The notes under the pieces are model-generated. The model saw nothing but the letters and a program-made list of their open reading frames with translations. It was not told the DNA's origin and did not search any database. From contig BROI01000010.1 of the NCBI GenBank assembly GCA_027923505.1, forward strand, positions 1-64,000: a DNA stretch of 64,000 nt, in the 5' to 3' direction. A program made the translations under genes and the position numbers. This DNA comes from Mayamaea pseudoterrestris. Lineage: Eukaryota. Position 1 is the stretch's first letter; each line of letters starts with the position of its first letter. This document shows, one piece after another, positions 2,459 through 64,000 of the stretch.

Positions 2459-2473
2459 GCAAGACTGTTAATC
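2459..2473 (-). other. Putative primer-binding site complementary to a tRNA-Asn(GTT) anticodon arm
   Basis: The minus strand directly after the LTR reads GATTAACAGTCTTGC. Its complement, GCAAGA-CT-GTT-AA-TC, has tRNA anticodon-loop geometry. Confidence 0.65.
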
Positions 2474-2802: not shown

Positions 2803-5145
2803 CTCAGGGAATGGCAATGTATTTGGTGACAACTTGTCACCAGTCTCAGCCTGCGGATGCCGTGACATTCAAACACTCCTACAGCAAGCCCTGTAGGTGC
2901 CCAAAATTAAACCAGAATGGTGCCAACATCATTATTCTGGCTGCGCTACAAGATGGTAGGCTTGGCTGGTGTCTCAGGGGATGGCAATCTATTTGGTGAC
3001 AACTTGTCACCAGTCTCAGCCCGCGGATGCCGTGACATTCAAACACCCCTACAGAAAGCCCTGTAGGTGCCCTAAATACACCAGAATGGTGCCAACATCA
3101 TTATTCAGGCTGCGCTACAAGTTGGTAGGCTTGGCTGGTGTCTCAGGGGATGGCAATGTATTTGGTGACAACTTGTCACAGTCTCAGCCCACGGATGCCG
3201 TGACATTCAAATGTCCCTACAGCAACCCCTGTAGGTGCCCAAAATACACCAGAATGGTGCCAACATCATTATTCAGGCATTGTTACAAGATGATAAACTT
3301 GGCTGGTGTCTCAGGGAATGGCAATGTATTTGGTGACAACTTGTCACCAGTCTCAGCCCGCGGATGCCGTGACATTCAAACACCCCTACAGAAAGCCCTG
3401 TAGGTGCCCAAAATACACCAGAATGGTGCCAACATCATAATTCAGGCTGCGCTACAAGATGGTAGGCTTGGCTGGTGTCTCAGGGGATGGCAATGTATTT
3501 GGTGACAACTTGTCACCAGTCTCAGCCCGCAGATGCCGTGACATTCAAACACTCCTACAGCAAGCCCTGTAGGTGCCCAAAATTAAACCAGAATGGTGCC
3601 AACATCATTATTCTGGCTGCGCTACAAGATGGTAGGCTTGGCTGGTGTCTCAGGGGATGGCAATCTATTTGGTGACAACTTGTCACCAGTCTCAGCCCGC
3701 GGATGCCGTGACATTCAAATGTCCCTACAGCAAGCCCTGTAGGTGCCCAAAATACACCAGAATGGTGCCAACATCATAATTCAGACTGCGCTACAAGACA
3801 GTATTCTTGGCTGGTTACTCAGGGGATGGCAATGTATTTGGTGACAACTTGTCACCAGTCTTAGCCCACGGATGCCATGACATTCAAATGTCCCTACAGC
3901 AAGCCCTGTAGGTGCCCAAAATACACCAGAATGGTGCCAACATCATTAATCAGGCTGCGCTACAAGATGGTATTCTTGGCTGGTGTCTCAGGGGATGGTA
4001 ATGTATTTGGTGACAACTTGTCACCAGTCTCAGCCCGCAGATGCCGTGACATTCAAACGCCCCTACAGCAAGCCCTGTAGGTGCCCAAAATACACCAGAA
4101 TGGTGCCAACATCATTAATCAGGCTGCGCTACAAGATGGTATTCTTGGCTGGTGTCTCAGGGGATGGCAATGTATTTGGTGACAACTTGTCACCAGTCTC
4201 AGCCCACAGATGCCGTGACATTCAAACGCCCCTACAGCAAGCCCTGTAGGTGCCCAAAATACACCAGAATGGTGCCAACATCATTATTCAGGCTGCGCTA
4301 CAAGATGGTAGGCTTGGCTGGTGTCTCAGGGGATGGCAATGTATTTGGTGACAACTTGTCACCAGTCTCAGCCCACAGATGCCGTGACATTCAAACGCCC
4401 CTACAGCAACCCCTGTAGGTGCCCAAAATACACCAGAATGGTGCCAACATCATTATTCAGGCTGCGCTACCCGTGACATTCAAACGCCCCTACAGCAACC
4501 CCTGTAGGTGCCCAAAATACACCAGAATGGTGCCAACATCATTATTCAGGCTGCGCTACAATATGGTAGGCTTGGCTGGTGTCTCAGGGGATGGCAATGT
4601 TTTGGTGACAACTTGTCACCAGTCTCAGCCTGCAGATGCCGTGACATTCAAACGCCCCTACAGCAAGCCCTGTAGGTGCCCAAAATACACCAGAATGGTG
4701 CCAACATCATTATTCAGGCTGCGCTACAATATGGTAGGCTTGGCTGGTGTCTCAGGGGATGGCAATGTATTTGGTGACAACTTGTCACCAGTCTCAGTTC
4801 TCGGATGCCGTGACATTCAAACACCCCTACAGAAAGCCCTGTAGGTGCCCAAAATACACCAGAATGGTGCCAACATCATTATTCAGGCTTCGCTACAAGA
4901 TGGTATTCTTGGCTGGTGTCTCAGGGGATGGCAATGTATTTGGTGACAAATTGTCACCAGTCTCAGCCCCCAGATGCCGGGACATTCAAACGCCCCTACA
5001 GCAAGCCCTGTAGGTGCCCAAAATACACCAGAATTGTTCCAACATCATTATTCAGGCTGCGCTACAAGATGGCAGTCTAGGCTGGTGTCTCAGGGGTTGG
5101 CAATGTATTTGGTGACAACTTGTCACCAGTCTCAGCCTGCGGATG
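2803..5145 (+). repeat. Satellite 1: ~14 tandem copies of a 169-170 bp unit
   Basis: TGGTGACAACTTGTCACCA recurs every ~169 bp (2824, 2994, ...). Copies are nearly identical, and one unit has an ~80-bp deletion at 4470/4471. Confidence 0.97.
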
Positions 5146-5336: not shown

Positions 5337-6338
5337 TTACTCGTAAAGGAATGGAAGTCCAGTGATAAGGTTGTCCATGCCATCGAATCCCGACTGAACA
5401 AAGTTCTGGCTGTCGTGACGGAGGAGCTCCAAGAAGGCAACCATGGCAAGGCGTCCATCTATAGATATACAATAAAGAAAGAAAGGGTGAGTCAATGTAA
5501 GGATGCGCAGGCGGCTGCAAACTGGCATGCTGTATTCGGTTCACTTACGCTGCAACTCCTGAAGCTTTCGGGTCTCGGCAACCTCGGGGCTGAGCTTGGG
5601 CTTTCCAAACTCAAAGTCTCCAAGGAAGCCATTGTAGTCGGTGGCACCGATCAAGAAGATGATCTGGGCCCATCCGAGCGCCGGGATGGCATCAATGGCG
5701 GCAACACCATTGGGGACATCGGCGCATGGAAGTCCTGGGGCAATGTCGAATGGGAAGCGGTAGAATTCCGGGACAATGTATCCGAGAACTCCCAACATGC
5801 CTGTGAAATAATAAGAAGGTGCTATAAGTGCGCGACTACGGCAACAGAATGCAATCAATAGCCTTGTCGTGTTGACCGGTCAATGCATCCAAACAGCTCG
5901 GACGCGATATCGCTGGTACTTACAAACACGTCCATGCTTGAGCTCGGCAGTGCGGTACTTGTCGAAGGTCTCCTCGTCAATGTTGGAGCTCAAGTTGAGC
6001 GGGTCAAAGAATCCAGTTGGGGCCTGTCGGTGTAAAGGATTCGGCGAATGGCGAATGGGTGAGATGCAGTTGTAGACGACACAGCTCTGTCCATGGCTCA
6101 TAATTACGTCTAGATCAGTTGAAATAGACAGCCACAATGCGAGATCGCACGTTTCATTGTCTTCACAAGAGCCATCCGATGGATTCGCAATCGTAGACTA
6201 TCTCGATGTTTGTCTACTTACAATGACACCAAGCTCGTTCTCGAAGGACGACTGAACGAGGGAGTTGGAGGCCTGCTTGGCGGAAGGGGCAAAGGCAGCA
6301 GCCGAGGCAATGAGGGAGGCGGCGATGGCAATCTTCAT
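5337..6338 (-). CDS. fcp: Fucoxanthin-chlorophyll a/c light-harvesting protein (FCP/LHC), 4 exons (6338-6222, 6023-5924, 5800-5549, 5458-5337)
   Basis: Presequence MKIAIAASLIASAAAFAP; LHC motifs GFFDPL, AELKHGRVCML and ELQHGRLAM; three GT-AG introns with consistent phase. Subfamily not assigned. Confidence 0.95.
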
Positions 6339-6740
6339 GGTGAACGTGTGTTGGTGGAGTGCTGGAAACTGAGGAGACAAGCTCGCAAGTCCCTGCAGTC
6401 CAAAAGGGCGACGTTGTCGTTGCGCGCGGTGGATTTGCTTCAACCAGGAGTCACTGCGAGATCCAGTCATGTGTGACGTAAATCTGCCCCCTTCTGTTCG
6501 GGTCTCACCCCCGAGAGCAACGAGTCTCAGAAATTCGGCATCTGGCGAGCACTCTAGAGCGCCCACAAAACAGCACAGAAATTGATGGCATCCATTGTTG
6601 CCGACCACTCGCGAGCAGCGCATCACGGAAGCCGAAATTCGAAAGTCCGAAGTTCCTTTCGACCATGACACGGCACAACGAAGAAGCATTGCTCCTTCGA
6701 AACGAGCAATTTGCACTCCTTGTCTATTAATAAAGAAAAA

Positions 6741-8225
6741 ATGAAGACTTCCACCATTCTCCTACTCTCCTTTCCGTCAGCAGAGGCCTTTTCGGCGCTT
6801 TCATCCTTTGCTCGACGCACCGAGTCACTTGCCAAGGTTTCCGTCGTGACTCGATCATCAGCCGCCGTCGGCATTACCATGTACGACTCCTCTCGCGACC
6901 CGCCATCCTCTCCGGAGCTCAACTCGTGGCACGTTTTGGCGACAACGGAACGATGGATCAGTGCGACATTGGCTGATCAGAATAGCAGTAGCAGCAGTCG
7001 ATCATCAAGTTCCCCGTCCATGCAGCAGCAGTCACCTTATTCCTCGAATCCATATTCACGCAAGGAAGTTGCCTACGCCTGCGAACCATTTTCGGATGCT
7101 GCCATGATTGTCGCAAGCATTTTTCGACGACTCAAAGAAGTCCGAGAGATTGGAGAAGGACATGCCAAGCAGCAGCGACTTTTGATGGATGAATGCAATG
7201 GTAAATGAATGTACTCGGATGACATTTATTTACACTTACTTCTACTTACACAATTGATCATTTTTGCTACAGACGACTCGTACGATCCAAAGACTCTGCG
7301 CCAGACGCAGGTGGTTGTCGTTCCTGGCAATTTGCAGTTTCGCAAAAGCTTTGCCACCTTTGACGACGTGGTCCGCACCATTAACGAGGCTCGTCGGCAG
7401 GCGCGCGACTTTGTTCTGACACGAAGCAATATTGACGACGACGACGACGACAGCAAACAATGGTCCGTTTCCATCAATTGCGCGCACATGCATCCAAATT
7501 TTGGCCAATTGACCAAGCAGCAGGAGCTGGAGCAGCTTCAAAATGAACCCGACGAAGTGGATTTGCACTACCAAGAGTATCAGGAAAAGAAGATGCTGGC
7601 TCGACGATCACCCTATCCCACCATTGTCTTGGAGGTACGAGCGATTCCGCCCATGAACTTGTCCGACGGCCGATCACCATATTCGCCGAAAGCGCTGCAG
7701 AGCCAACCAAGGTCTGGAAGCGTTTCCAGCAGCGACATTGCCGCACTCGAAGCACTCTTTGGTAAGTCGGCGCACTTGGGCGATTCAAACAACAGCAATC
7801 ATTATGAGGAGGATGCCTTTTACAATGCCATTGGACAAACCTTGGAGCAAGTAGATGCCAAGACGCCGCTTCGAATTGCACAGGAGTGGATGGTGCAGCA
7901 TGACGACGTTGCAATCAACAAGGCCAAGCAAGTTGCGTTTACGGAATCAGCCACGAACGAAATTGACGCAGCCTACGAATTCTTGTTTACAAATGTCGCC
8001 ATGATGCGCGACAATGGAACCAGTCGCCAATACTTGGTCTATCCGCAGTTGCTGGTGTCGAGCGCAACGTCGTTGGAAAAGTTTTGCCAGGCGGCGTTAA
8101 ACATTATGAAAGTATTGCCAGAACTCTCTGGCGGAAAGATGTTACTGGAAATATTTCATCCGGAGCATGTTGATGCAAGCAAGCGATCGCCCATGCCAAT
8201 TGTTGCATTGGAACTAACTGATTGA
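6741..8225 (+). CDS. Hypothetical protein, probably plastid-targeted, 2 exons (intron 7201-7272)
   Basis: MKTSTILLLSFPSAEAFSA resembles a signal peptide with an AF cleavage motif. A GT-AG intron joins the 165-aa and 338-aa ORFs in frame. No domain recognised. Confidence 0.75.
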
Positions 8226-12749: not shown

Positions 12750-14138
12750 TTAAGGAACGGATACAAGCGTTTTGGGCAAGGAGAATTGGTGAAAGCCTTC
12801 CTCGCCCGAGTGGTAATTCATTCCAGAGTGCTTGTAGCCAACCCAGGGGCACGCCACGTCCATATTCTCCAAGCTGTAGCAATTAATACCAACCTGTCCT
12901 GCGTGTATTTGTGAAGCCACTCGCTCTGCTTTGTCCAAATCAAGCGAATAGACGCTCGCCGCCAAGCCAAACTCGGTATCATTCGCCAATCGAATCGCTT
13001 CCGTTTCGCTTCCATCATACGGCGTCAAACACACGAGTGGACCAAAGGTTTCCTCGCGATACGTCTTCATGCCATCTTGAACATCCGCGAGAACCGTGAC
13101 GGGGTAAAATGATCCATTCAAGTCCGATGGAGTTTCACTCTGAAATAAAAGCTTGGCACCCTTGCTCACGGCATCGTCAACGTGCTCCTGCACCTTGTTG
13201 CGCTGCGTGTCCGACACGAGCGGACCAACCATGGTGCTCGGATCCTTGCCACTTCCAACCTTGTAGTCGGCTGCTAATGCGGCAACTTTTTCCTGCATTT
13301 CATTGTAAACTTTATCTGCAACAAAGATGCGCTCGACGGAGCAACAAACTTGACCCGCATTGCTCAAGGAATACTTGACAGCGTCATGCGCCGCCTTGTC
13401 TAAATCGGCATCCTCAAAGACAATCATTGGATCCTTGCCTCCAAGCTCCAATACGAATCGCTTCATGCTTGGAGCGGCTGTCTCCAAAATCTTTTTACCA
13501 GTTTCCGACGACCCCGTCATGGCAATCATGTCAACGCGCGGCGACGACACCAATCTCGCGCCAACGCTTCCATCACCTTGCGCCAGCTGTAAGACTCCTT
13601 CCGGTAGTACACTTGCCAGTGCTTGAACGACGAGCGCTCCCGTTTCCGGAGTCACCTCCGAAGGCTTGACCAAAACGCAGTTGCCCGATCCTAGGGCCGG
13701 CAAGACGAGCAAGAGAATTTCACCGACTGGATAGTTCCATGGACTCAATACAGCAACGATTCCCAATGGACTGCGAATAACCTTGCTGCTGTTATGTTGC
13801 TTTGGCTGGAGCGCTTGTAAGAGTATGTCTAAAAAGGCATTCTTGTGACAGGCATCGTCCATTTCCTCGACCGCTTCCTGCCAAGGCTTACCCATTTCCT
13901 CGACAATGAGTTTGGTCAGTCGGTCCGAAACTACTTCCAGTTGTTCAAGACCTTTTCTGAGTAAATTGATTCGTTCCTCGGCGGAAGTTTGCGCCCAAAA
14001 AGGTTGCTGTTGCGCTGCCAAGTCAATCATTTCGTCCAGTTCCGCCGGTGTCGTGCATGGAACCTTGCTGATGACTTCATTAGTTGCTGGGTTCTTGTTA
14101 ATGATACATCCATCGACAATGGAAATTCCCTGTACCAT
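12750..14138 (-). CDS. NAD(P)-dependent aldehyde dehydrogenase (SSADH-like), intronless
   Basis: ALDH motifs SPWNYP, KPSE, TGSSETG, LELGGKDP, catalytic NAGQVC, EETFGP and ANDTEFGL. Confidence 0.93.
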   Translation of the reverse strand: MVQGISIVDGCIINKNPATNEVISKVPCTTPAELDEMIDLAAQQQPFWAQTSAEERINLLRKGLEQLEVVSDRLTKLIVEEMGKPWQEAVEEMDDACHKNAFLDILLQALQPKQHNSSKVIRSPLGIVAVLSPWNYPVGEILLLVLPALGSGNCVLVKPSEVTPETGALVVQALASVLPEGVLQLAQGDGSVGARLVSSPRVDMIAMTGSSETGKKILETAAPSMKRFVLELGGKDPMIVFEDADLDKAAHDAVKYSLSNAGQVCCSVERIFVADKVYNEMQEKVAALAADYKVGSGKDPSTMVGPLVSDTQRNKVQEHVDDAVSKGAKLLFQSETPSDLNGSFYPVTVLADVQDGMKTYREETFGPLVCLTPYDGSETEAIRLANDTEFGLAASVYSLDLDKAERVASQIHAGQVGINCYSLENMDVACPWVGYKHSGMNYHSGEEGFHQFSLPKTLVSVP

Positions 14139-46976: not shown

Positions 46977-47356
46977 CCAGAATGGTGTCAACATCCGTAT
47001 CTAAGGTGCGGTACAAGATGCAAATTGCCTGGCTGGTGTCTCAGTAGATTGCAATGTGACAGCTGAGAATTTGTCCTCAGTCCCAGCCCAGATATGCCTT
47101 GACATTCAAACGCCCATACATCAAGCCACATAGATGCCCAAATCACCCAAGGATGGTGCCAACAAGGTATTTCAGTAGACTGCATAGTGACGGTTGAGAA
47201 TTAACGCCAGTCTCAGTCTGCAGATGTCTTGACATTCAAGTGCCCCATCATCAAGCCATGTAGATGCCTGAATATACCAGGCCATTTCTACACCTGAATC
47301 ACCCAGCAATAGTGACAGCACCATTGTTCACTCTGCGCTACCAGATAGAATGCCTG
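46977..47356 (+). repeat. Two to three degenerate satellite-1 units in plus orientation
   Basis: CCAGAATGGTGTCAACATC, TACAAGATG, GGCTGGTGTCTCAG and GACATTCAAACGCCC are recognisable, but the central palindrome is destroyed. Confidence 0.75.
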
Positions 47357-48248
47357 GAGATTGGTGCAAAATTAAACTTCCTTAGCTGTTTCCTCGAAGC
47401 TACTCGTATGGTATGGGAGGGCAGTTCAGACATCCACACAGGAACCAGCTCCATGGTGCTACAGTGCATGGCCTTTCAAATCGAACCCCAATTGTGGTCT
47501 CGCTCCATCAATCCCATTTGGCTGTGCTTGGGGACATGCTTGCGGTGAGATTGGTGCAAAAAAATCATCCATAGCTGATTCAAAGCAGCTATGGTATTGG
47601 AGGGCAATCCAGCCATCCACACAGGTACCAGCTCCATGGTGCTACAGTGCATGGCCTTCCAGACCTCCCCCCCATTGTAGTCTCCCTCCATCAATACCAA
47701 TTGGCTATGCTTGGGGACATGCTTGCGGTGAGATTGGTGCATAAAAATTTTCCATAGCGGATTCCTAGCAACAATGGTTTGGGAGGGCAATCCAGCCATC
47801 CACACAGGTACCAGCTCCATGGTGCTACAATGCATGGCCTTCCAAATCTACCCCCAATTGCAGTCTTGCTCCATCAATCCTGTTTGGCTATGCTTGGGGA
47901 CATGCTTGCTGTGAGTTTGGTGCATAAAAATTCTTCCATAGCGGATTCCTAGCAGCAATGGTATGGGAGGGCAATCCAGATACCTACACAGGTACCAGCT
48001 CCATGGTGCTACAGTGCATGGGCTTTTTAAATCTACCCCCAATTGTAGTCTTGCTTCATCAATCCCGTATGACTATGCTTGGGGTCATGCTTGCGGTGAT
48101 ATTGGTGCAAAACAATTATCCATAGCTGATTCCTAGCAGCTATGGTATGGGAGGGCAATCCAGACATCCACACAGGAACGAGCTCCATGGTGCTACAAGG
48201 CATGGCCTTCCAAATCTACCCCCAATTGTAGTCTTGCTCCATCAATCC
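47357..48248. repeat. Satellite 2: ~5 tandem copies of a 183-184 bp unit
   Basis: GCTCCATGGTGCTAC recurs at 47448, 47631, 47814, 47998 and 48182. Confidence 0.95.
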
Positions 48249-51200
48249 TGAGACTGGTGACAAGTTGTCACCAAATACATTGCCATCCCCTGAGACACCA
48301 GCCAAGCCTACCATCTTGTAGCGCAGCCTGAATAATGATGTTGGCACCATTCTGGTGAATTTTGGGCACCTACAGGGCTTGCTGTAGTGGCGTTTGAATG
48401 TCCCAGCATCTGCGGGCTGAGACTGGTGACAAGTTGTCACCAAATACATTGCCATCCCCTGAGACACCATCCAAGCCTACCATCTTGTAGCGCAGCCTGT
48501 ATAATGATGTTGGCACCATTCTGGTGTATTTTGGGCACCTACAGGGCTTGCTGTAGGGGCGTTTGAATGTCCCGGCATCTGCGGGCTGAGACCGGTGACA
48601 AGTTGTCACCAAATACATGGCCATCCCCTCAGACACCAGCCAAGCCTACCATCTTGTAGCGCAGCTTGATAATGATTTGGGCACCATTCTGGTGTATTTT
48701 GGGCACCTACAGGGCTTGCTGTAGGGGCGTTTGAATGTCCCGGCATCTGCGGGCTGAGACTGGTGACAAGTTGTCACCAAATACATTGCCATCCCCTGAG
48801 ACACCAGCCAAGCCTACCATCTTGTAGCGCAGCCTGAATAATGATGTTGGCACCATTCTGGTGTGATTTGGGTGTACACATGGCTTGCTGTAGGGGCGTT
48901 TGAATGTCAAGGCATCTGCGGGCTGAGACTGGTGACAAGTTGTCACCAAAGCCAAGCCTACCATCTTGTAGCGCAGCCTGAATAATGATGTTGGCACCAT
49001 TCTGGTGTGATTTGGGTGTACACATGGCTTGCTGTAGGGGCGTTTGAATGTCAAGGCATCTGCGGGCTGAGACTGGTGACAAGTTGTCACCAATATCATT
49101 ACCGTCCCCTGAGACACTAGCCAGGTATACCATCTTGTAGCGCAGCCTGAATAATGATGTTGGCACCATTCTGGTGTATTTTGAGCACCTACAGGGCTTA
49201 CTGAAGGGGCGTTTGAATGTCACGGCATCTGCGGGCTGAGACTGGTGACAAGCTGTCACCAATATCATTGCTGTCCCCTGAGACACTAGCCAGGCATACC
49301 ATCTTGTAGCGCAGCTTGAATAATGATGTTGGCAATTTTCTGGTGACATTTGGGTATACACATGGCCTGCTGTAGGGGCGTTTGAATGCCACGGCATCTG
49401 CGGGCTGAGACTGGTGACAAGTTGTCACCAATATCATTGCCATCCCCTGAGACACTAGCCAGGTATACCATCTTGTTGCGCAGCCTGGATAATGATGTTG
49501 GCACAATTCTGGTGTCATTTGGGTGTATACATGGCCTGCTGTAGGGCGTTGAATCCGCATGCGGGCTGACACCACCCCGAAAATGTTGTGTTCTGTTGTT
49601 TTTTGCACACAGGCTGCAAGTGAGGCTGAGACTGGTGACAAGTTGTCACCAATATCATCCCCTGAGACACTAGCCAAGCATACCATCTTGTAGCGCAGCC
49701 TGAATAATGATGTTGGCACCATTCTGGTGTCATTTTGGGTACTATTCATGGCCTGCTGTGGGGCGTTTGAATGTCCCGGCATCCGCACTGAGACTGGTGA
49801 CAAGTTGTCACCAATGTCATTGCTATCCCCTGAGACACTAGCCAGGCCTACCATCTTGTGGCGCAGCCTGAATAATGATGTTGGCAATTCTGGTGTCATT
49901 TGGGTTTACCTACATGGCCTGCTGTAGGGGTGTTTGAACGTCCCGGCTCTGCGGGCTGAGACTGGTGACAAGTTGTCACCAATATCATTGCTGTCCCCTG
50001 AGACACCAGCCAAGCATACCATCTTGTTGCCCAGCCTGTAATGTTGGCACATTTCGGTGTGGTGTTCTGGCCCCTTGTAGGGCGTTTGAATTCACGGCAT
50101 CTGCAGGCTGAGACTGGTGACAAGTTGTCACCAATATCGTTACCGTCCCCTGAGCACTAGCCCAGGCATACCATCTTGTAGCGCAGCCTGAATAATGATG
50201 TTGGCAATATTCTTGTATTTTGGGCACCCCCAGGCCGCTGTATGGGCGGTTGAAGTAGCGCGGCATCGGCTGAGACGTGATAAGTTGTCACCAATATCAT
50301 TCCCGTCCCCTGAGACACCGCCAGGCAGGCATACCATCTTGTAGCCTGAATAATGATGTTGCACCATTCTGGTGTCATTTGGGTGTCATCTGCGGCCTGC
50401 TGTTAGGGCGTTTTGAATGTATCACGGCATCTGCAGGCTGGGAACCCCGGTGACAAGTTGTCACCAATATCTCGTTCCTGAGCACTAGTTTGGCATACCA
50501 TCTTGTTGCGCAGCCTGAATATGATGTTGGCACCATTCTGGTGTCATTTGGAGTGTATACATGGCCTGCTGTAGGGGCATTTGAATGTATCTGCAGACTG
50601 AGACTGGTGACAAGTTGTCACCAATATCATTGCAGTCCCCTGAGACACTAGCCAGGCATACCATCTTGTTGTGGCTAGCCAGAAGGTTTGTGTTCGACGG
50701 CATCTGAAGGCTGAGACTGAGTGACAAGTTGTCACCAATGTTTGCTGTCCCTGAGACACTAGCCAGGCATACCATCTTGTTGCGAGCCTGAATAATGGGC
50801 ACCAATCTGGTGTCATTTGTACGCCTGCTGTAGGGGCATTTGAATCGCGGCATCTGCAGGCTGAGACGACAAGTTGTCCAATATGTCCCTGGACACTAGC
50901 CAGGCATACCATCTTGTAGCGCAGCCTGGATAATGATGTTGGCCTGTTCTGGTGTCATTGGGTGTATAAATGTGTCACTGCTGTGGGGCGTTTTGAATGT
51001 CGGCATCTGCGGGCTGAGACTGGTGACAAGTTGTCACCAATATCATTGCTGTCCCCTGAGACACTAGCCAGGCACACCATCTTGGCGCAGCCTGGATAAT
51101 GATGTTGGCACAATTCTGGAAGTATCATTTGGTTGTATACACATGGCCTGCTGTAGGGGCATTTAGATATGTGACGCTGCAGGACTGGGGCTGGTGACAA

Positions 51201-51589: not shown

Positions 51590-54500
51590 TTCCATTGTCA
51601 TGGCCACACCCTGGGCATGTTTTGCCCTGACTCATTGGGTGGTTGGGTGGCCAAAGCATGGGGGCATTGTAGTGGTATGATTCCATAATTTGGGGTGTTG
51701 CCCCACCCATCTTGTGGACCATTCCATGCTGTGGGCCTCCGCGGCTCAAGTGATCCGTTTTGTACCATTTCCAGCCATCCTCATGTCAATGGCACCCTGG
51801 ACATGTGTCGCATTACTAATTGGGTTGTTGGGTGATCAGGGGATGGGGGCATTGTCAGTCGGTATGATTCCATATGGTGTTCCACTCTCATTTTGCTTGG
51901 TGGTGTGGGCCTCCAGGCAGTCTTTTCCTTCAGCCCGTCCTCCACTGTATTGGCCCTTGGACATGTTTTGCCCTGGCCACTCATTGGGTTGTTGGGTGGC
52001 CAGGGCATGGGGCATTGCAGTGGTATGATTCCCTAATTTGGGGTGTTGGCCACACCCTCTTGTGCCATTCCACCTTGGCCTCAGGCAGTCCGTTTTGTAC
52101 CATGTCAGACCATCCTCATGTCAATGGCCCCTGGACATGTTTTGCATCGACTCATTGGGTTGTTGGTGATCGGCGAGACCGGGGCGGTGTAGTGGTATGA
52201 TTCCATAATTTGGGGTATTGGTGCTGCCTCCAGGCAGTCCGTTTTGCACCATTTCAGCCATCGTCTTGTCATGGCACACCCTGGACATGTTTTGCTTGTA
52301 ACCTCATTGGTTGTTGGGGCCAGGGCATGGGCTGTAGTGTATGATTCCGATCTGGGTGTTGGCCACACCCATCTTGTAGACCCCATGCTGTAGGCCTCCA
52401 GGCAGTCCGTTTTTGTACCTAGCCATCCTCATGTCAATGGCACACCCTGGACATGTTTTGCCTGACTCTTTGGGTTGTTGGGTGGGCCATGGCAAGGGGG
52501 CATTGTGGGTTTCTGGGGTCCCTCTTCTGGCCTCCAGCAGTCCGTTTTGTACATGTCCAGCCATCCTCATGTCAATGGCACCTTGGACATGTTTTGCATG
52601 ACTCATTGGGTTGTTGAATTGGTGTTGGGGCGAGGCATTGGCGTGTGGGTATGATTCCATAATTTGGGGTGTTGGGCCACACCCATTTTGCAGATGGTGT
52701 AGGCCTCCAATCAGTCCCGTTTTGCACCATTTCAGCCCATCCTCATGTCAATGGCACACCCTGGACATGTTTTGCCTGACTCATTGGGTGTTGGGTGGCC
52801 AGGGCATGCGTGGTTCTTTGGGGTGTTGGTGCCCATTTGTCGGCCCTTCCTAGGCCTCCAGGCAGTCCGTTTTGTACCATGTCAGCCATCCTCATGTCCA
52901 ATGGCACACCCTGGACATGTTTTGCCGGGCATTGAGGTATGATCCGCAATTGGGGTGTTGGCCACACCCATTTTGCAGATGTAGGCCTCCAGGCAGATCC
53001 GTTTTGCACCATTTCAGCCCATCACTCCTGTCCAATGGCACACCGTGAGACATGTTTTGCCCCTGCTCATTGGGTTGTTGGGTGTGGGCGGGGGCATCGT
53101 AGTGAGTATGATTCCATAATTTGGGGTGTTTGCCACACCCATTTTGCCAGATGGTGTGGGCCTCCAGGCAGTCACGTTTTGCACCATTTCAGCCCATCCT
53201 CATGTCAATGGCACACCCTGGACATGTTTTGCCCGACTCATTGGGTTGTTGGGTGGCTAGGGCATGTGGCATTGTAGTGGTATGATTCCAATTTGGGGGT
53301 GTTGGCCACACCCATCTTGTAGACCATTCCATGCTGTAGGCCTCCAGGCAGTCCGTTTTGTGCCATGTCAGTTCATCCTCCATGTCAATGGCACACCCTG
53401 GACATGTTTTGCATGACTCATTGGAGTTTGTTGGGTGATCAGGGGCAGGGGCATTGTGGTGGTATGATTCCATAATTTGGGGTGTTGGCCACCATTTTGC
53501 AGATGGTGTAGGCTCCAGGCAGTCCGTTTTGCCCATTTCCAGCCATCCTCATGTCATGGCACACCCTGGACATGTTTTGCCTGAAGCTCATTGGGTTTGT
53601 TGGGTGGCCAGGGCATGGGGCATTTGTGTGGTATGATTCCACAATTTTGGGGGTGTTGGCCCACACCCATCTTGTGGACCATTCCATGCTGTGAGGCGCA
53701 CTCCAGGCAGTCCGTTTTTGTACCATGTCCGCATCTGCTGGCACACCACCCCCTCCCCGTGTCTTCTGACTCATTGGGTTCGTTGGTGCCAGCCTGGCAT
53801 GGGGCATTGTCAGTGGTATGATTCCATAATTTGGGGTGTGGCCACACCCATCTTGTGGTTTCATTTCATGCTGTAGGGCTCTGGGGATCCGTTTGCTGCC
53901 ATCCTCATGTCAATGGCACACCTGAACATGTTTACTCATTGGGTTGTTGGGTGATCCTCGGGGACGGGGCATTGTGGTAGGTATGATTCCACATAATTTG
54001 GGGCGTTGGGTGGCCTCCAGGCAATCCGAGCATCCTCTGTCATGGACACCCTGGACATGTTTTGCCTGACTCAGTGGGTTGTTGGGTGGCCAGAACAGAA
54101 GACATTGTAGTGGTATGATTCCATAATTTGGGGTGTTGTCCACACCCATCTTATGTCTGCCACTTAGGCCTCCAGGCAGTCCGTTTGTACCATGTCAGCC
54201 ATCCCTCATGTCAATGGCACACCCCTGGACATATTTTATGACTCATTGGGTTGTTGGGTGATCAGGGACGGGGCATTGTGTGGTATGATTCAAAATTTGG
54301 GGTGTTGGCCACACCCATTTTGCAGATAATTGCCTCCCAGGCAGTCCGTTTGCACCATTTCAGACCATCCTCATGTCAATGGCGGCACACCCCCTGGACA
54401 TGCTTGTCTAACTCATTGGGTTGTTGTGGCCAGGGCATGGGCATTGCTCAGTGGTATGATTCCATAATTTGGGGTGTTGGCCACGCATGCTGTAGACCAT

Positions 54501-57500
54501 TCCATGCTGTGAGCCTCCAGAGCAGTCCAGTTTCATCCATGTCCAGACCATCCTCATGTCAATAGCACCTGGTTTATGTTTGGTTGGTTGGGTGATCAGA
54601 GACGAGGGCATTGTAGTGGTATGGTTCATAATTTGGGGTGTTGGCCACACCCATTTTACGAATGGTGTGAGCCTCCAGGCAGTCCATTTTGCACCATTTC
54701 AGCCCATCCTCATGTCAATGCTTCACCCTGGACATGTTTTGCCTGACTCATTGGGTTGTTGGGTGGCCCGGGGCATGGGGCATTGTAGTGAGTATTCCAT
54801 AATTTGGGGTGTTGGCCACACCCATCATGCCATTCCATGCTGTAGGCCTCCAGGCAGTCCGTTTTGTACCATGCCAGACCATCCCCTCATATCAATGCAC
54901 ACCCTGGACATGTTGCATGGCTCATTGGGTTGTTGGGTGATCAGAGGACGAGGGCATTGTGTGGTATGATTCCGCCAATTTTGGGGTGTTGGCCACACCC
55001 ATTTTGCAGATAGTTGCATAGGCAGTCCGTTTTTGCACCATTTTCCAGCCCATCCTCATGTCAATGGCACCCTGGACATGTTTTTGCTTGACTCATTGGG
55101 TTGTTGGGTGGCCAGGGCAGCAGGGCATTGTAGTGGTATGATTCCATAATTTTGGGGTGTTGGCCACACCCATCTTGTAGACCATTCCATGCTGTAGGCC
55201 TCCAGGCAGTCCGTTTTTTACCATAATGGGCCATTATGTCATGGCACACCCTGGACATGCATTGTTCATTGGGTTGTTGGGTGATCAGGGATGGGGCATT
55301 GTAGTGGTATGATTCCATAATTTGGTGTTGTACACCCATTTTTGCCAGATGGTGTAGTAGGCCTCCCAGGCAGTCCTTCTTGCACCATTTCAGACCATCC
55401 TCATGTCAATGGCATACCCTAAACATGTTTTGCCTGACTCATTGGTTGTTGTGGCCAGGGCATGGGGGCATTGTGGTGGTATGATTCCATAATTTGGGGT
55501 GTTAGCCACACCCATCTTGTAGACCATTCCATGCTGCGGCCTTAGGCAGTCCGTTTTGTACCATGTCAGATCATCCCCTCATGTCAATGGCACACCCTGG
55601 ACATGTTTTGCATGACTCATTGGGTTGTTGGGTGATCAGGGACGGAGCATGTGGTATGGTTATAATTTGGGAGTGTTGGCCACACCCATTTTGCAGATGA
55701 TTGTAGGCCTCCAGGCAGTCCGTTTGCACCATTCAGCCCCATCCTCATGTCATGGCACACCCTGGACATGTTTGCCTGACTCATTGGGTTGTTGGGTGGC
55801 CAATGGGGCATGGGGCATTGTAGTGGTATGATTCCATAATTTTGGGGTGTTGGCCACACCCATCTTGTAGACCATTCCATGCTGTAGGCCTCCAGGCAGT
55901 CCGTTTTTGTACCATGTTAGACCATCACTCATGTCAATGGCACACCCTGGACATGTTTGTGACTCATTGGGTTGTTGGTGATCAGGGGATGGGGCAGCTC
56001 AATAATTAGTATGGTTACATAATTTGGTGTTGGCCACAATTTGCAGATGAATTGTAGGCCTCCCAGGCAGTGTTTTGCACCATTTCAGCCCATCCTCATG
56101 TCAATGGCACACCCTGGACATGTTTTGCCTGACTCATTGGGTTGTTGGGTGGTCAGGGCATAGGGCATTGTAGTGGTATGATTCCATAATTTGGGGTGGT
56201 GGCCACACCCATCTTGTAGACCATTCCATGCTGTAGGCCTCCAGGCAGTCCGTTTTGTACCATGTCAGATGTCTCATGTCAATAGCCCCCTGGACATCTT
56301 GCATGACTCATTGGGTTGTTGGGTGATCAGGGACCAGGGGGCATTGTAGTGGTATGATTCCATAATTTGGGTGTTGGCCACACCCACATTTGTAGATGGT
56401 GTAGGCCTCCAGGCAGTCCGTTTTGTACCATTTAGCCCATCCTCATCAGTATGGCACACCCTGGACATGTTTGCCTGATAATTGGGTTGTTGGGTGGCCA
56501 GAGGCGTGGGGGCATTGTAGTGGTATGATTCCATAATTTGGGGTGTTGGCCACACCCATCTTGTAGACCATTCCATGCTGTAGGCCTAGGCAGTGTTATG
56601 TACCATGTCAGGCCATCTCTGCACAGTGGCACACTGTTTTCTGCATGACTCATTGGGCTGTTGGGTGATCAGGGACGGGGGCATTGTAGTGGTATGATTC
56701 CATAATTTGGGGCGTTGGCCTCATTTTGCAGATGGTGTGGCCTCCAGGCAGTCCTTTGCACCATTTCCTTGAGCCATCCTCATGTCATGGCACACCCTGG
56801 ACATGTTTTGCCTGACTCATTGGGTTGTTGGGTGGCCAGGGCATGGGGCATTGTAGTGGTATGATTCCATAATTTGGGGTGTTGGCCACACCCATCTTGT
56901 AGTTTCATTCCATGCTGTAGGCCTCCAGGCAGTGTTTTGTAATGCCAGACCATCCTCATGTCAATGGCACACCCTGGACATGTTGTGCATGACTCATTGG
57001 CTTGTTGGGTGATCAGAGTTAGGGCATTGTAGTGGTATGATTCCATAATTTGAGGTGTTGGCCACACCCAATTTTGCAGATAGTGTAGGCATCAGGCAGT
57101 CCGTTTTGCACCATTTCAGCCCATCCTCATGTCAATGGCACCTGGACATGTTTTGGACTCATTGGGTTGTTGAATTTGGCCAGGGCATGGGGCATTGTAG
57201 TGGTATGATTCCATAATTTGGGGTGTTGGCCACACCCATCTTGTAGACCATTCCATAGGCCTCCAGGCAGTGTTTTGTACCATGTCAGACTATCACTCAT
57301 GTCAATGGCACACCCCTGGACATGTTTGCATGACTCATTGGATTGTTGGGTGATCAGGGAGCGGGGCATTGTAGTTAATGATTCCATAATTTGGGGTGTT
57401 AGCCACCCATTTGCAGATGGTGTAGGCCTCCCAGGCGATCCGTTTTGCACCATTTCAGCCCATCCTCATGTCAATGGCACACCCTGGACATGTTTGCCTG

Positions 57501-60500
57501 AAACTCATTGGGTTGTTGGGTGTAGGGCATGGGGCATTGTAGTGGTATGATTCCATAATTTGAGATTGTTGGCCACACCCATCTTGTAGACCATTCCATG
57601 CTGTAGGCCTCCAGCTGAGTCAGTTTTAATACCATGTCAGACCATCCTCATGTCAATGGCACACCCTGGACATGTTTTGCATGACTCATTGGGTTGTTGG
57701 GTGATCAGGATGGGGCATTTAATAGTTATGATTCCGCCAATTTGGGGTGTTGGCCACACCCATTTGCAGATGGTGTAGGCCTCCAGGGCCAGTCCGTTTG
57801 CACCATTTCAGCCCATCCTCATGTCCAATGGCACACCTGGACATGTTTGCCTGACCTCATTGGGTTGTTGGGTGGCGGTGTGGGGCATTATGAGTGGTAT
57901 GATTCCATAATTTGCAGGTGTGGCCTTTATCTGCCAATTCCATGCTGTAGGCCTAGGCAGTCGTTTTGTACCATAATCAGCATCCTCATGTCAAGGCACA
58001 CCTGGACATGTTTGCATGACTCATTGGGTTGTTGGGTGATCAAGGGACGGAGACATTGTAATTAGGTATGATTCCATAATTTGGGGCGTTGGCCACACCC
58101 ATTTTGCAGATGGTGTGGGTTTGTTGGTGGCCAGGGCATGGGGCATAGTAGTATGATTCCCTAATTTGAGGTGTTGGCCACACCATCTTGTGAACCATTC
58201 TGGCCCCCAGGCAGTCGTGTTTGTACCGTGTCAGACCATCCTCTTGTCATTGGCACACCCTGGACATGTTTACTCATTGGGTTGTTGGGTGATCAAGGGG
58301 ACGGGGCATTGTAGTGGTATTCCATAATTTGCGGGTGTTGGCCACACCCATTTTTGCAGAATGGTGTAGGCCTTCCTGAGCAGTCCGTTTTGTACCATTT
58401 CAGCCCATCCTCATGTCAATGGCACACCTGGTCATGTTTTGCCTGACTCATTGGGTTGTTGGGTGGCCAGGGCATGGGCACTGTAGTGGTATGATTCCAT
58501 AATTTGGGGTGTTAGGCCACACCCATCTTGGGACCATTCCATGCTGTAGGCCTGTAGTCCGTTTTGCATGTCAGGCCATCCTCGCCATCAGTGGCACACC
58601 CTGGACATGTTTTTCATTGGGTTGTTGGGTGATCAGGGGGCGGGGCATTGTAGTTATGTTCCCATAATTTGGGGTGTTGGCCACACCCATTTTGTAGATG
58701 GTGTAGGCCTCTAGGCGGTCCGTTTTTTCTTCCAGCCCATCTCATGTCAACGGCACACCCTGGACATTTTGCCTGACTCATTGGGTTGTTGGGGGGCCAG
58801 GGCATGCGAGGCATTGTGTGGTATGATTCCACAATTTGGGGTGTTGGCCCACACCCATCTTGTGGACCATTCCTGTCTTCTGTGGCTCCAGAGCAGTCGT
58901 TTTGTCATGTCAGACCTCCCTCTAATGGCACACCCTGGACATGTTTTGCACTCATTGGGTTGTTGGGTGTGTCAGGGGGGGCGGGGCATTCGTAGTCAGG
59001 TATCGATTCCTTAGTTTGGGTGTTGGCCCACCCATTTTGCAGATGGTGTAGGCCTCCAGTCGGTCCGTTTTGCACTATTTCAGCCCATCCTCCTTGTCAA
59101 TGGCACACCCTGGACATGTTTTGCCATCATTGGTTTGTTGGGTGGCCCGGGGCGCAGGGGCATTGTGTGGTATGATTCACATAATTGGGGTGTTGGCCAC
59201 ACCCATCGCCTTGCCGTGTATTCCATGCTGTAGGCCTCTAGGCAGTCCGTTTTGTACCATGTGAGACCATCCTGTGTCATGGCACACCCTGGACATGTTT
59301 TGCACTGACTTGTGGTTGTTGGGTGATCAGGAGACGGGGCATTGTGTGGTATGGTTCCATATTGGGGTGTTGGCCGCCCCTTGCAGATGGTGTGGGCCCC
59401 TCCAGGCAGTCCGTTTTTACTGGCCTCTGGCCCATCCCTCTGTCAGCATGCACCCTGGACATGTTTTGCCTGACTCATTGGGTTGTTGGTGGCTTCAGGG
59501 GCATGAGGGCATTGTGTGGTATGATTCCATAATTTGGGGTGTTGGCCACACCCATGCTTGTGGACCATTCCCTCGCTGCTGTCGGCCTCCCGGGCAGTCC
59601 GTTTTTGTACACCATGTCAGATATCCTCATGTCAATGGCACACCCTGGACTGTTTTGCATGACTCATTGGGTTGTTGGGTGATCAGGGGCGGGGCATTGT
59701 GTGAGTCATGATTCCGCATTTGGGGTGTTGGCCACCCATTTTGCAGATGGTGTGGGCCTCCAGGCGGTCCGTTTTGCACCATTTCAGCCCATCACTCATG
59801 TCCATACGGCCCCTGGACATGTTTTGCCTGACTCATTGGGTTGTTGGTGGCCAGGGCATGGGGCATTTGTGTGGTCTGTTCCATAATTTGGGGTGTTGGC
59901 CGCCCCATCTTTGGACCTTCTGACTGTAGGCCTCCAGGCAGTCCGTTTTGTACCATGTCAGACCATCCTCACAATGGCTTTCACCCTGGACATGTTTGCA
60001 TGACTCATTGGGTTGTTGGTGATCAAAGGGGATGGGGCATTGTAGTGGTATGATTCATAATTTGGAGGTGTTGGCCACACCCATTTTGCAGATGGTGTGG
60101 GCCTCCGGGCGATCGTCTTTTGCACCATTTCCAGCCCATCCGTGCCCTCCCACTCATTGCGGGTTGTTGTTGGCCAGGGCATGGGGCATTCTGGTGGTAT
60201 GATTCCATAATTTGGGGTGTTGGCCACACCCATCTTGACCATTCCATGCTGTAGGCCTCCAGGCAGTTGTTCATGTCAGCCATCCTCATGTCAATGGCAC
60301 ACCCTGGACTGTGTTTGCATGACTCATTGGGTTGGGTGATCAGGGGAACGGGAGCATGTAATTAGGTATGATTCCATAATTTGGGGTGTTGGCCACCCAC
60401 TCCTTTTTGAAAGATGGTGTAGGCCTCGGGCAGTCCGTTTTGCCTGCCATTTCCAGCCCATCCTCTTGTCATCACACCCTGGACATGTTTTTGCCTGACT

Positions 60501-63500
60501 CATTGGGTTGTTGGGTGGCCCAGGGCATGGGGCATTGTTGGGTATGATTCCATAATTTGGGGTGTTGGCCACCCCTTCTTGTACTTTATTCCATGCTGTA
60601 GGCCTCCAGGCAGTCCGTTTTGTACCATGTCAGACCATCCTCATGTCAATGGCACACCCTGGACATGTTTGCATGACTCATTGGGTTGTTGGGTGATCAG
60701 GGGACGGGGCATTGTAGTGGTATGGTTTCTTAATTTGGGGTGTTGGCCACACCCATTTTGCAGATGGTGTAGGCTTCCAGGCAGTCCGTTTTGCACCATT
60801 TCAGCCTATCCTCATGTCAATGGCACACCCTCGACATGTTTTTGCCTGACTCATTGGGTTGTTGGATGTGGCCAGGGCATGGGGCATTGTAGTGGTATGA
60901 TTCCATAATTTGGGTTGTTGGCCACACCCATCTTGTAGACCATTCCATGCTGTAGGCCTAGGCAGTCCGTTTTGTACCATGTCAGACCATCCTCATGTCA
61001 GTGGCACACCCTGGACATGTTTTGCATGACTCATTGGGTTGTTGGGTGATCAGGGACGGGGCATTGTGGTGGTATGATTCTGTGGTTTTGGTGTTGGCCA
61101 CACCCATTTTGCAGATGGTGTAGGCCTCAGGCAGTCCGTTTGTTCAGCCCACATCCATGTCATGGCACACCCTGGACATGTATTGCCTGGCTCATTGGGT
61201 TGTTGGGTGGCCAGAGCATGTCGAGGCATTGTAGTAGGTATGATTCCATAATTTGGGGTGTTAGCCACACCCATCTTGTAGACCATTCCCATGGTGTAGG
61301 CCTCCAGGCAGTCCATTTTGTACCATGTCAGACCATCCTCATGTCAATGGCACACCCTGGACATATTTTGCATGACTCATTGAGTTGTTCGATATGATCA
61401 GGGGCGGGGCATTGTGTGGTATGATTCCGCCAATTTGTATGGGTTGGCCCCCCCCATTTGCAGATGGTGTGGCCTCCCAGGCAGTCAGTGTGCATTATTC
61501 AGCATCCTCATGTCAATGGCACACCCTAAACTTGTTTTGCCTGACTCATTGGGTTGTTGGGTGGCCAGGGCATGGGGCATTGTAGTGGTATGATTCCATA
61601 ATTTGGGGTGTTGGCCACACCCATCTTGTAGACCATTCCATACTGTAGATCTCCAGGCAGTCCATTTTGTGCCATGTCCAGACCATCCTCATGTCAATGG
61701 CACCCACTGGACATGTTTGCATGACTCATTGGGTTGTTGGGTGATCAAGGGACGGGGCATTATGGTAGTATGATTCCATAATTTGTATGGGTTGGCCACA
61801 CCCATTTTGCAGATGGTGTGAGCCTCCCAGGCGATCCGTTTCCATCATTTCAGCCCATCCTCATGTCAGCCGCACACCCTAAGCTTATGTTTTGCCCACG
61901 ACTCATTGGGTTGTTAATTTGGCCAGGGCATGGGGCATTGTAGGAGTATGATTCCATAATTTGGGGTGTTGGCCACACCCATCTTGTAGACCATTCCATG
62001 CTGTGAGCCTCCAGGCAGTCCGTTTTGTACCATGTCAGACCATCCACTCAAGTCAATGGCACACCCTGGACATGTTTGCATGACTCATTGGGTTGTTGGG
62101 TGATCAGGGGACGGGGCATTGTGGTGAATCAGTTCCATAGTTTGGGGTGTTGGCCCACCCATTTTGGATGGTGTGAGCCTCCAGGCAGTCCGTTTTGCAC
62201 CATTTCCGCCCCATCCCTCCAATGGCACACCCTGGACATGTTTTGCCTGGCTCATTGTGGTTTGTTGGTGAGCCGGGCATGAGAGCATTGTAGTGGTATG
62301 ATTTCCATAATTTGGGGTGTTGGCCACACCCATCTTGTAGACCATTCCATGCCTGTAGGCCTCCAGGCAGTCGTTTTGTACTGCATGTCAGCATCCCACC
62401 TCATGTCAATGGCACACCCTGGACATGTTTTGCCTGACTCATGTTGGGTGATCGGGGCGGGGCATTGGTGGCTTGTTGGGGGTTGGCCCCCCATTTGTTG
62501 CCAGATGGTGTAGGCCTCTCAGGCAGTCGTTTGCACCATTTCAGCCCATCACTCATGTCAATGGCACACCCTGGACATGTTTTGCCTGGCTCATTGGGGT
62601 TGGGTGGCCAGGGCATGGGAGCATTTTGGGGTTGATTCCATAATTTGGGGTGTTGGCCACACCCGTCTTGTAGACCATTCCATGCTGTAAGCCTCCAGGC
62701 AGTCGTTTTGTACATGTCAGACCATCCTCAAGTCAATGGCACCCTGGACATATTTTTGCCTGACTCATTGGGTTGTTGGGTGATCGGGGGGGCGATTGTG
62801 GTGGTATGATTCCATAATTTGGGGTGTTGGCCACACCCCATTTTGCAGATGGTCGTAGGCCTCGCAGGCGTCCGTTTTGCACCATTCCGGCCCATCCTCA
62901 TGTCAGCCAGCACACCCTGGACGTGTTTTGTCTGGCTCATTAGGGTTGTTGGGTGGCCGGGGCATGGGGCATTGTAGTGAGCCTTGATTCCATAATTTGG
63001 GGTGTTGGCCACACCCATCTTGTCATTATGCTCCAGCTGAGCCTCCAGGCAGTCCGTTTTGTACCATGTCAGACCATCCTCATGTCAATGGCACACCCTG
63101 GACATGTTTTGCCTGACTCATTGGGTTGTTGGGTGATCAGGGGATGGGGCATTGTGGTGGTATGGATCTCCATAATTTGGGGTGTCCACACCCATTTTGC
63201 AGATGTGCGGGCCTCCAGTCAATCCGTTGCATTTCAGCCCCATCCTCATGTCATGGCACACCCTGGACATGTTTTGCCTGGCTCATTGGGTTGTTGGGTG
63301 GCCCAGGCATGGGGGCATTGTAGTGGTATGATTCCACCAATTTGGGGTGTTGGCCACACCCATCTTGTTGAACCATTCCATGCTGTAGGCCTCCAGGCAG
63401 TCCGTTTTGTACCATGTCGGACCATCCTCATGTCAATATGGCACACCCTGGACATGTTTTGCCTGACTCATTGGGTTGTTGGGTGATCAGGGGAGGGGCA

Positions 63501-63630
63501 TTGTGGTGGTATGATTCCATAATTTTGGGGTGTTGGCCACACCCATTTTGCAGATGGTGTAGGCCTCCAGTCAGTCCGTTTTGCCCTTTTCGCCCATCCT
63601 CCAGCTCACCCTGGACATGTTTTCTGACAT
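51590..63630. repeat. Satellite 3: ~12-kb array of alternating ~180-bp (A) and ~171-bp (B) monomers (~350-bp dimer)
   Basis: Recurrent CCTGGACATG...TGACTCATTGGGTTGTTGGGTG. A carries TGGCCAGGGCATGGGG and CATCTTGTAGACCATTCCATGC; B carries TGATCAGGGACGGGG and CATTTTGCAGATGG. Example spacings: 60661 to 60832 to 61013. Confidence 0.95.
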
Positions 63631-63639
63631 CATTAGTTG

Positions 63640-64000
63640 TGGGCGTTGAATGTCACAGCATCTGCGGGCTGAGTGGTGACAAGTTGTCACCAATATCCGT
63701 ACTGTTAAGAGACACTTGCCAGGCGCACCATCTTGTGGCGCAGCCTGAATAATGATGTTGGCACCATTCTGGTGTCATTTGGAGTGTATACATGGCCTGC
63801 TGAAGATTATTTTTGAATGTTATAGCATCTGCAGGCTGAGACTGGTGACAAGTTGTCACCAATATCTGCCATCCCCTGAGACACTAGCCAGACGCCACCA
63901 TCTTGGCGCAGCTGAATAATGAAGTTGGCACAATTCTGGTGTCATTTGGGTGTGTACATGGCCTGCTGTAGGGTTGTTTGAATGTCCGCGGCATCTGCAG
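63640..64000 (-). repeat. Satellite 1 resumes (minus orientation) and runs off the window
   Basis: GGTGACAAGTTGTCACCAATAT at ~63675 and ~63844, and GCAGCCTGAATAATGATGTTGGCAC. Confidence 0.9.

Follow-up and report, generated by a model that had tools for sequence, protein, structure and literature searches.

We found that a Copia-type LTR retrotransposon in the diatom Mayamaea pseudoterrestris has, immediately after its 5′ LTR, a candidate primer-binding site (PBS) whose sequence complements that of the tRNA-Asn(GTT) anticodon arm. In our judgement it is highly probable that cytosolic tRNA-Asn(GUU) is the partner of the PBS in this diatom Copia lineage, pairing through its anticodon arm, and that, in active members, a 5′ fragment of this tRNA ending at C40 primes reverse transcription. 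What the sequences show directly is how the site is built, that it is an exact complement of a stretch of real tRNA-Asn genes, that the elements belong to Copia and that the site is retained next to the LTR across the lineage. The element is located at the start of the 64-kb stretch of DNA that we analysed, which we call the window (Table 1).

The candidate primer-binding site and its LTR

The PBS begins at the first base 3′ of the LTR, as read in the sense direction of the element. The plus strand at positions 2459–2473 is GCAAGACTGTTAATC, and the minus strand from 2473 to 2459 is GATTAACAGTCTTGC. An earlier note on this DNA had described a PBS lying directly internal to the LTR and lacking TGG, and this description holds: the LTR (2474–2802) is followed by GATTAACAGTCTTGC, and the 30 nt after the LTR contain no TGG for conventional pairing with a tRNA 3′-CCA. 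A conventional TGG-led PBS for a tRNA 3′ end was rejected for the window element on this ground, although two related elements, L099 and L142, do have a TTGG sequence, as detailed below. With up to two mismatches allowed, the 15-mer has one match in the 64 kb versus 0.12 expected, and 12 of 100 shuffled sequences had at least one match. The 15-mer by itself is unremarkable in 64 kb, so its place and its conservation carry the weight.

Table 1. Features of the element and of the adjoining DNA in the window
Feature	Positions	Strand	Remarks
Gag and start of protease, Copia-type polyprotein	1–2254	minus	cut by the window start; three-frame translation
Leader between PBS and gag start codon, ~200 nt	2255–2458	minus	untranslated; ATG at 2254–2252
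PBS, sense GATTAACAGTCTTGC	2459–2473	minus	complement of tRNA-Asn(GTT) positions 26–40
Invariant PBS core GATTAACAGTC	2463–2473	minus	conservation in related loci
5′ LTR, 329 bp	2474–2802	minus	TG...CA ends; imperfect terminal inverted repeat TGACAC(A/G)ATA(T/A)TAT
169-bp satellite array, context outside the element	2803–5140 (end approximate)	none	repeat families D1, D2, D5

The identity of the complementary tRNA was established with viral contigs, which we scanned for the 15-mer. ARAGORN recognized 32 of the resulting 98 stretches with the exact 15-mer as tRNA-Asn(GTT) genes; unrelated coding or repetitive DNA makes up the remaining 66. The 15-mer has the same layout in all 32 genes: G26, the stem strand CAAGA, the loop CTGTTAA and then TC. 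In each of the 32, the next bases are TTG, which close the stem CAAGA/TCTTG. The earlier reading of the 15-mer as the anticodon arm of tRNA-Asn(GTT) is thus confirmed on 32 ARAGORN-called genes, all of which come from viral contigs rather than from the host. The register proposed in the same note (the anticodon, AA and two further bases, then the LTR, as in copia and Ty5) was also found, given that the PBS starts at the LTR edge and complements positions 26–40.

As regards the host, we infer from the sequence of the PBS that its tRNA-Asn carries the CAAGACTGTTAATC arm. The tRNA-Asn reading calls for a nuclear host tRNA-Asn(GUU) with at least CAAGACUGUUAAUC. No tRNA gene was detected in the window by tRNA and Rfam scans. 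The sequencing runs X1, X2, X3 and X5 were compared at 80% likeness with L024:40-370, a stretch of a giant-virus MAG with a eukaryote-like tRNA-Asn gene and, as controls, genes for tRNA-Ser and tRNA-Thr; they gave no contigs on any of these genes, the Ser and Thr controls included.

On the sense (minus) strand of the window, the LTR reads 5′-TGACACAATATTAT...ATATTATCGTGTCA-3′, and its terminal inverted repeat matches at 12 of the first 14 end positions. The inner edge is at 2474, where the last LTR bases are ...GTGTCA. The outer edge (2802|2803) is the point where likeness to the neighbouring 169-bp satellite monomer resumes. Since the monomer sequence continues beyond 2802, the element was inserted within the satellite array. 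No second LTR or further copy of the element occurs within the 64-kb window; the 3′ LTR is missing because the element runs off base 1. Therefore, the LTR boundary is based on the TG...CA ends, the inverted ends, the break in the satellite and the related elements. Among 11 sequencing runs, eight contain a fraction of 0.31–0.51 of the element's words.

The same 169-bp repeat forms a second block at 47000–51100, in inverted orientation and ~42 kb from the first. The families represented in the 169-bp arrays are D1, D2, D5, D6, D12 and D14, with opposite-strand blastn matches at 48267–48800. A more diverged family of tandem or interspersed repeats, with a spacing of ~170–180 nt and multiples of this, occupies positions 51600–64000. 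These repeats (families D3, D4, D7–D11, D13, D15 and D16) have a common conserved start, CCTCATGTCAATGGCACACCCTGGACATGTTTTGC.

The element might instead prime itself in the manner of Tf1, with its PBS pairing to a stretch at the start of its own RNA. The LTR does hold a sequence, ACAAGACGGTTAGCT (LTR position ~41–55), that agrees with the full complement of the PBS at 10 of 15 positions. However, 491 of 2000 shuffles of the slice searched (the LTR and 9 flanking bases) match equally well or better, and U3 would be all but absent from an LTR whose transcript began at nt 41. The complement of the PBS core is present on the sense strand in only one of 78 related loci. Moreover, the predicted fold of the leader is not significant: its z-score is +1.62, with folds at least as good in 96 of 100 shuffled sequences. 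We rejected self-priming of the Tf1/Sushi or TAR type on the shuffle result for the 10/15 match and on the leader z-score, and regard it as extremely unlikely.

In the predicted leader fold, the end of the LTR (2474–2496) and the first PBS bases (2470–2473) can pair as a small hairpin, GUCUGAUAU...GUGUCAGAU, although the overall fold is no better than those of shuffled sequences.

Copia affiliation of the element

The part of the element inside the window consists of gag and the start of the protease only; integrase and reverse transcriptase (RT) are supplied by its relatives. The gag–protease frame is broken: tblastn of related proteins gives pieces in frames -1, -3, -2, -3 and -1, which corresponds to at least four frame changes. 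The window element is a decayed copy, or the sequence has errors. Pfam searches of the window's own ORFs yielded no family at E ≤ 0.001 and, at a cutoff of 0.1, chance-level matches only (E 0.05–0.08).

We assigned the element through a chain of related proteins. A full HMMER search with the gag ORF (1389–1925, 178 aa) gave 53 weak relatives, counted as representatives. Pfam assigned no family to the 13 gag relatives analysed, and a first search for longer proteins with gag as the query gave no match. One gag relative, P0003 (833 aa), has a gag–protease–integrase organization, in which the match to the integrase-like core rve is weak (E = 0.011). P0003 aligns to the protease piece of the window at 350–36 with 47% identity. 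Its region 480–833 in turn retrieved 186 longer proteins of ~1500–2250 aa (polyproteins of ~1800 aa). Among the matches listed, PF07727 (RVT_2, the Copia-type RT) is present in all 120 longer relatives, and one longer relative is named from the diatom Epithemia. Intact relatives have a single long gag-pol ORF.

From the gag relatives, P0003, the RVT_2-containing polyproteins and the names Epithemia and Mayamaea, it follows that the element is of the diatom Copia type (CoDi-like). To judge from these relatives, which provide the affiliation, the window contains the 5′ terminal part of a defunct LTR retrotransposon of this kind. Like CoDi elements (Copia from diatoms; Maumus et al. 2009), it has a diatom host, a Copia RT (PF07727, in the relatives) and a single long gag-pol ORF in intact relatives; we assign it to no particular CoDi group.

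Some further properties of the window and of the gag relatives were observed. The library protein P0001 (2576 aa) contains 12 separate matches to the gag domain of the window element and no Pfam family; it looks like a single gene call over gag-like domains that stand in a tandem array. Beyond the satellite, a putative light-harvesting protein gene was recognized by eye on the minus strand at 5350–6340. Positions 7209–44515 contain ordinary eukaryotic genes, including those for MIF4G/MA3, aldehyde dehydrogenase, alanyl-tRNA synthetase, aminotransferase, cupin, FGAM synthase, VASt, WD40 and bZIP proteins. The aldehyde dehydrogenase (12750–14138) is 100% identical to an NCBI protein named for Mayamaea pseudoterrestris.

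Conservation in related elements

The earlier note had suggested a check of PBS conservation across copies of the family. Using an alignment of 33 polyproteins (A2), we scanned metagenome contigs and obtained 78 related loci with a total of 454,541 nt. The PBS core, GATTAACAGTC, is found on the sense strand in 50 of these 78 loci (48 exact, two with one mismatch), and it occurs twice in two loci. On the antisense strand, it is found in one locus of the 78 at up to one mismatch; 0.11 exact matches are expected per strand. In all 50 loci, the core stands directly after an LTR end of the form ...CA/TA. Two of the loci, L111 and L148, each have two LTR copies, and the similarity between the two ends precisely at the base that precedes the core. 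The core lies 90–1433 nt (median 686) upstream of the first ATG of a long polyprotein ORF, as determined for 27 sites. A blastn comparison of the window element with the 78 loci revealed no relative at the nucleotide level, and ARAGORN detected no tRNA in these 78 metagenome loci. A scan of viral contigs for related loci produced 24 pattern matches, none of which was confirmed.

We counted bases by column in the window element and 49 of the loci, which together provide 50 distinct 55-mers; the remaining locus, L109, was left out because its contig ends too early. Core positions 0 to +8 are invariant, and positions +9 and +10 are conserved in 49 of the 50 sequences. In the LTR, position -1 is A in all 50, and position -2 is C in 42 and T in 8. 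The flanking columns mostly have an information content of ~0 bits, and values above 0.5 bits are confined to positions -7 to -1, which correspond to the LTR tip. Beyond the core, position +12 is restricted to C or T and position +13 to A or G; position +14 is free. The restriction at +12 and +13 is as expected if these bases face stem positions 28 and 27 of the tRNA.

The core is widespread within the lineage, as far as can be judged from an RT tree (quick search, midpoint rooting). The tree includes 60 of the 78 loci and leaves out the 18 whose RT piece is shorter than 400 aa or contains a stop. The midpoint root has elements with the core on either side, and almost all subclades include such elements. 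On this tree, the three stem bases after the core changed at least 27 times, as compared with a minimum of 10 and a mean of 36.7 for shuffled data. The core never changed.

The core is missing in 28 of the 78 loci, most of which are partial contigs, and several are near-identical to loci that have it. In at least L099, L103, L115, L162 and L163, and also in L142, the region upstream of gag is present and the core is absent. Two of these, L099 (3217–3240) and L142 (~871–900), have the sequence TTGG...GGTCGGGGA after LTRs ending in ...GACA and ...TTCCA, respectively. This sequence possibly represents a different primer site, maybe one of the tRNA 3′-end type. Given the sequence of L099 and L142, the lineage is not uniform, and switches of primer have probably occurred.

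Many of the related loci (L101, L103, L107, L114, L118, L119, L123, L124, L133, L138, L154 and others) are contigs of ~6.5–7.5 kb whose two ends are identical over exactly 91, 99, 111 or 127 nt. Such contigs look like circular assemblies, which may derive from LTR collapse or from one-LTR circles. With a circular assembly, the junction of LTR and PBS falls in the middle of the contig.

A conserved 11-nt sequence at the LTR edge could also be a cis element unrelated to any tRNA, such as an extension of the end bound by integrase or a signal for dimerization or packaging, in which case its likeness to tRNA-Asn would be coincidental. The LTR tip, too, is conserved (T at -5, C/T at -2 and A at -1), which does show some constraint on the terminal sequence. 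However, an 11-nt identity to one tRNA loop plus two closing pairs, in the half-tRNA register, amounts by simple arithmetic to a chance of ~1 in 4 million per tRNA arm. Also, variation past the core follows the Y/R pattern of an anticodon stem, and the four extra bases of the window's PBS complete a natural tRNA-Asn arm. We therefore consider a tRNA-independent cis element very improbable.

Another explanation is that the site binds tRNA-Asn or its fragment for a purpose other than priming (packaging, translational or small-RNA control, or heterochromatin targeting), and that reverse transcription starts from a different primer. Conservation and complementarity are evidence of the potential to bind, rather than of priming, and passages of one paper ascribe silencing roles to PBS–tRNA pairing in other systems (PMC13537249). 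On the other hand, the site is at the first base past the LTR in every case, a register that is needed only for extension of a 3′ end into U5. There is also no other PBS candidate, with TGG absent from the 30 nt. In addition, the register equals that of the proven copia and Ty5 primers. Binding without priming is thus quite unlikely. Neither this explanation nor a cis element accounts for both the fixed register at the LTR edge and the stem-like variation past the core, and our preferred reading remains that the site serves a tRNA-Asn primer.

Proposed priming by a tRNA-Asn fragment

In the mechanism that we propose, a cut in the anticodon stem of tRNA-Asn, on its 3′ strand between nucleotides 40 and 41, would give a ~40-nt 5′ fragment with its 3′ end at C40. 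By its nucleotides 27–40 (26–40 for the window copy), this fragment would anneal to the 14–15 nt right after the LTR. Its extension into U5-R by reverse transcriptase would yield minus-strand strong-stop DNA. We infer from the PBS that the host tRNA-Asn has the required arm, that it is cleaved at 40/41 and that the resulting fragment primes. The window copy itself, with its broken gag–protease frame and no visible 3′ LTR, may never have used the site.

The end of the conserved region at approximately position 27 would fit a stop of plus-strand copying at G26, to go by general knowledge of tRNAs. G26 of tRNA is usually modified. Modification also raises an objection to the mechanism: tRNA-Asn carries t6A37, which is expected to hinder both pairing and copying. 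This objection applies equally to the proven cases with initiator tRNA-Met (iMet).

The earlier note had further linked priming to stress-induced tRNA halves, and this link is unsupported. Stress-induced halves are cut within the anticodon loop. Given a cut in the loop, such halves lack the last nucleotides (37/38–40), which must pair beside the LTR.

Priming by a 3′-truncated initiator tRNA-Met, as a fragment of 39–40 nt, has been shown biochemically for Drosophila copia and yeast Ty5. The elements described here resemble these two in belonging to the Copia superfamily, in having no TGG after the LTR, and in having a PBS that starts from the first post-LTR base. The PBS likewise complements the anticodon stem-loop and stops after two bases of the 3′ stem strand (anticodon-AA-NN). 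They differ from copia and Ty5 in that the tRNA is Asn(GUU) rather than iMet, in that the host is a diatom, and in that the primer is deduced here from sequence.

Excerpts of Kojima 2024 (PMC10886601) cite copia and Ty5 for the half-tRNA mechanism, and report anticodon-loop PBSs in Copia/Helenus elements of rust fungi for the Tyr, Ile, Asp and iMet tRNAs and, once, for Asn-GTT. According to these excerpts, the fungal Asn case is a single non-autonomous Helenus lineage, whereas the diatom elements form an autonomous and widespread Copia lineage in which Asn is the main type. Other Copia groups with such sites are described in passages of further papers. An internal tRNA-Arg(UCU) PBS is described for Tca2-type families of Candida albicans, and among several families of Candida both tRNA-Arg(UCU) and iMet sites occur (PMC4139406). 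Plant elements have PBSs for half-molecules of tRNA-Ile (1/2tRNA-Ile; Bianca) or tRNA-Met (1/2tRNA-Met; Osser, Bryco and Gymco-II) (PMC6317226), and the fungal FunCo1 has an internal tRNA-Lys PBS (PMC5445492). As presented in these passages, all of them share with the diatom elements the Copia affiliation, a half-molecule or internal tRNA primer deduced from sequence, and a primer type typical of the lineage; they differ in the tRNA and in the host.

These reports bear on another proposal of the earlier note, that of half-tRNA priming with a non-Met tRNA. The anticodon-arm PBS for tRNA-Asn(GTT) stands and is found lineage-wide, but a non-Met half-tRNA primer is not new. Since internal priming with non-Met tRNAs (Arg, Ile, Lys, Tyr, Asp and, once, Asn) is already in print, the mechanism is not unprecedented. 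What our analysis would add is tRNA-Asn as a lineage-wide internal primer of a diatom Copia clade. We found no report of a PBS or tRNA primer of a diatom element in full-text searches of the literature. The main text of Maumus et al. 2009 does not mention tRNA and uses "PBS" only for the buffer, and Llorens 2009 mentions neither tRNA nor PBS. In a paper on small RNAs of P. tricornutum, "Asn" is absent from the text, and one of its supplements contains no match.

The sites have several uses. Among the transposons of diatom genomes, Copia-type elements predominate, and an LTR end of the form ...CA followed by GATTAACAGTC provides a simple sequence tag for 5′ LTR edges in the annotation of diatom Copia elements. 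From the PBS, the anticodon stem of tRNA-Asn can be predicted for each host, and small-RNA and VLP data can be searched for this particular tRNA. As a lineage-wide primer, tRNA-Asn would join the list of internally cleaved tRNA primers, which leaves the known mechanism unchanged, and these elements would offer many natural variants for the study of the cut at 40/41.

Diatom Copia elements are switched on by nitrate starvation, as stated in excerpts of one paper (PMC2806351). We give little credence to a broader scenario, in which this large and old diatom Copia lineage would depend on a tRNA-Asn 5′ fragment extending to C40 from a dedicated stem cut, whose rate would follow the state of the cell (for example, how much nitrogen is available, or how far tRNA-Asn is charged or modified). 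If it were true, the supply of primer would gate retrotransposition in diatoms.
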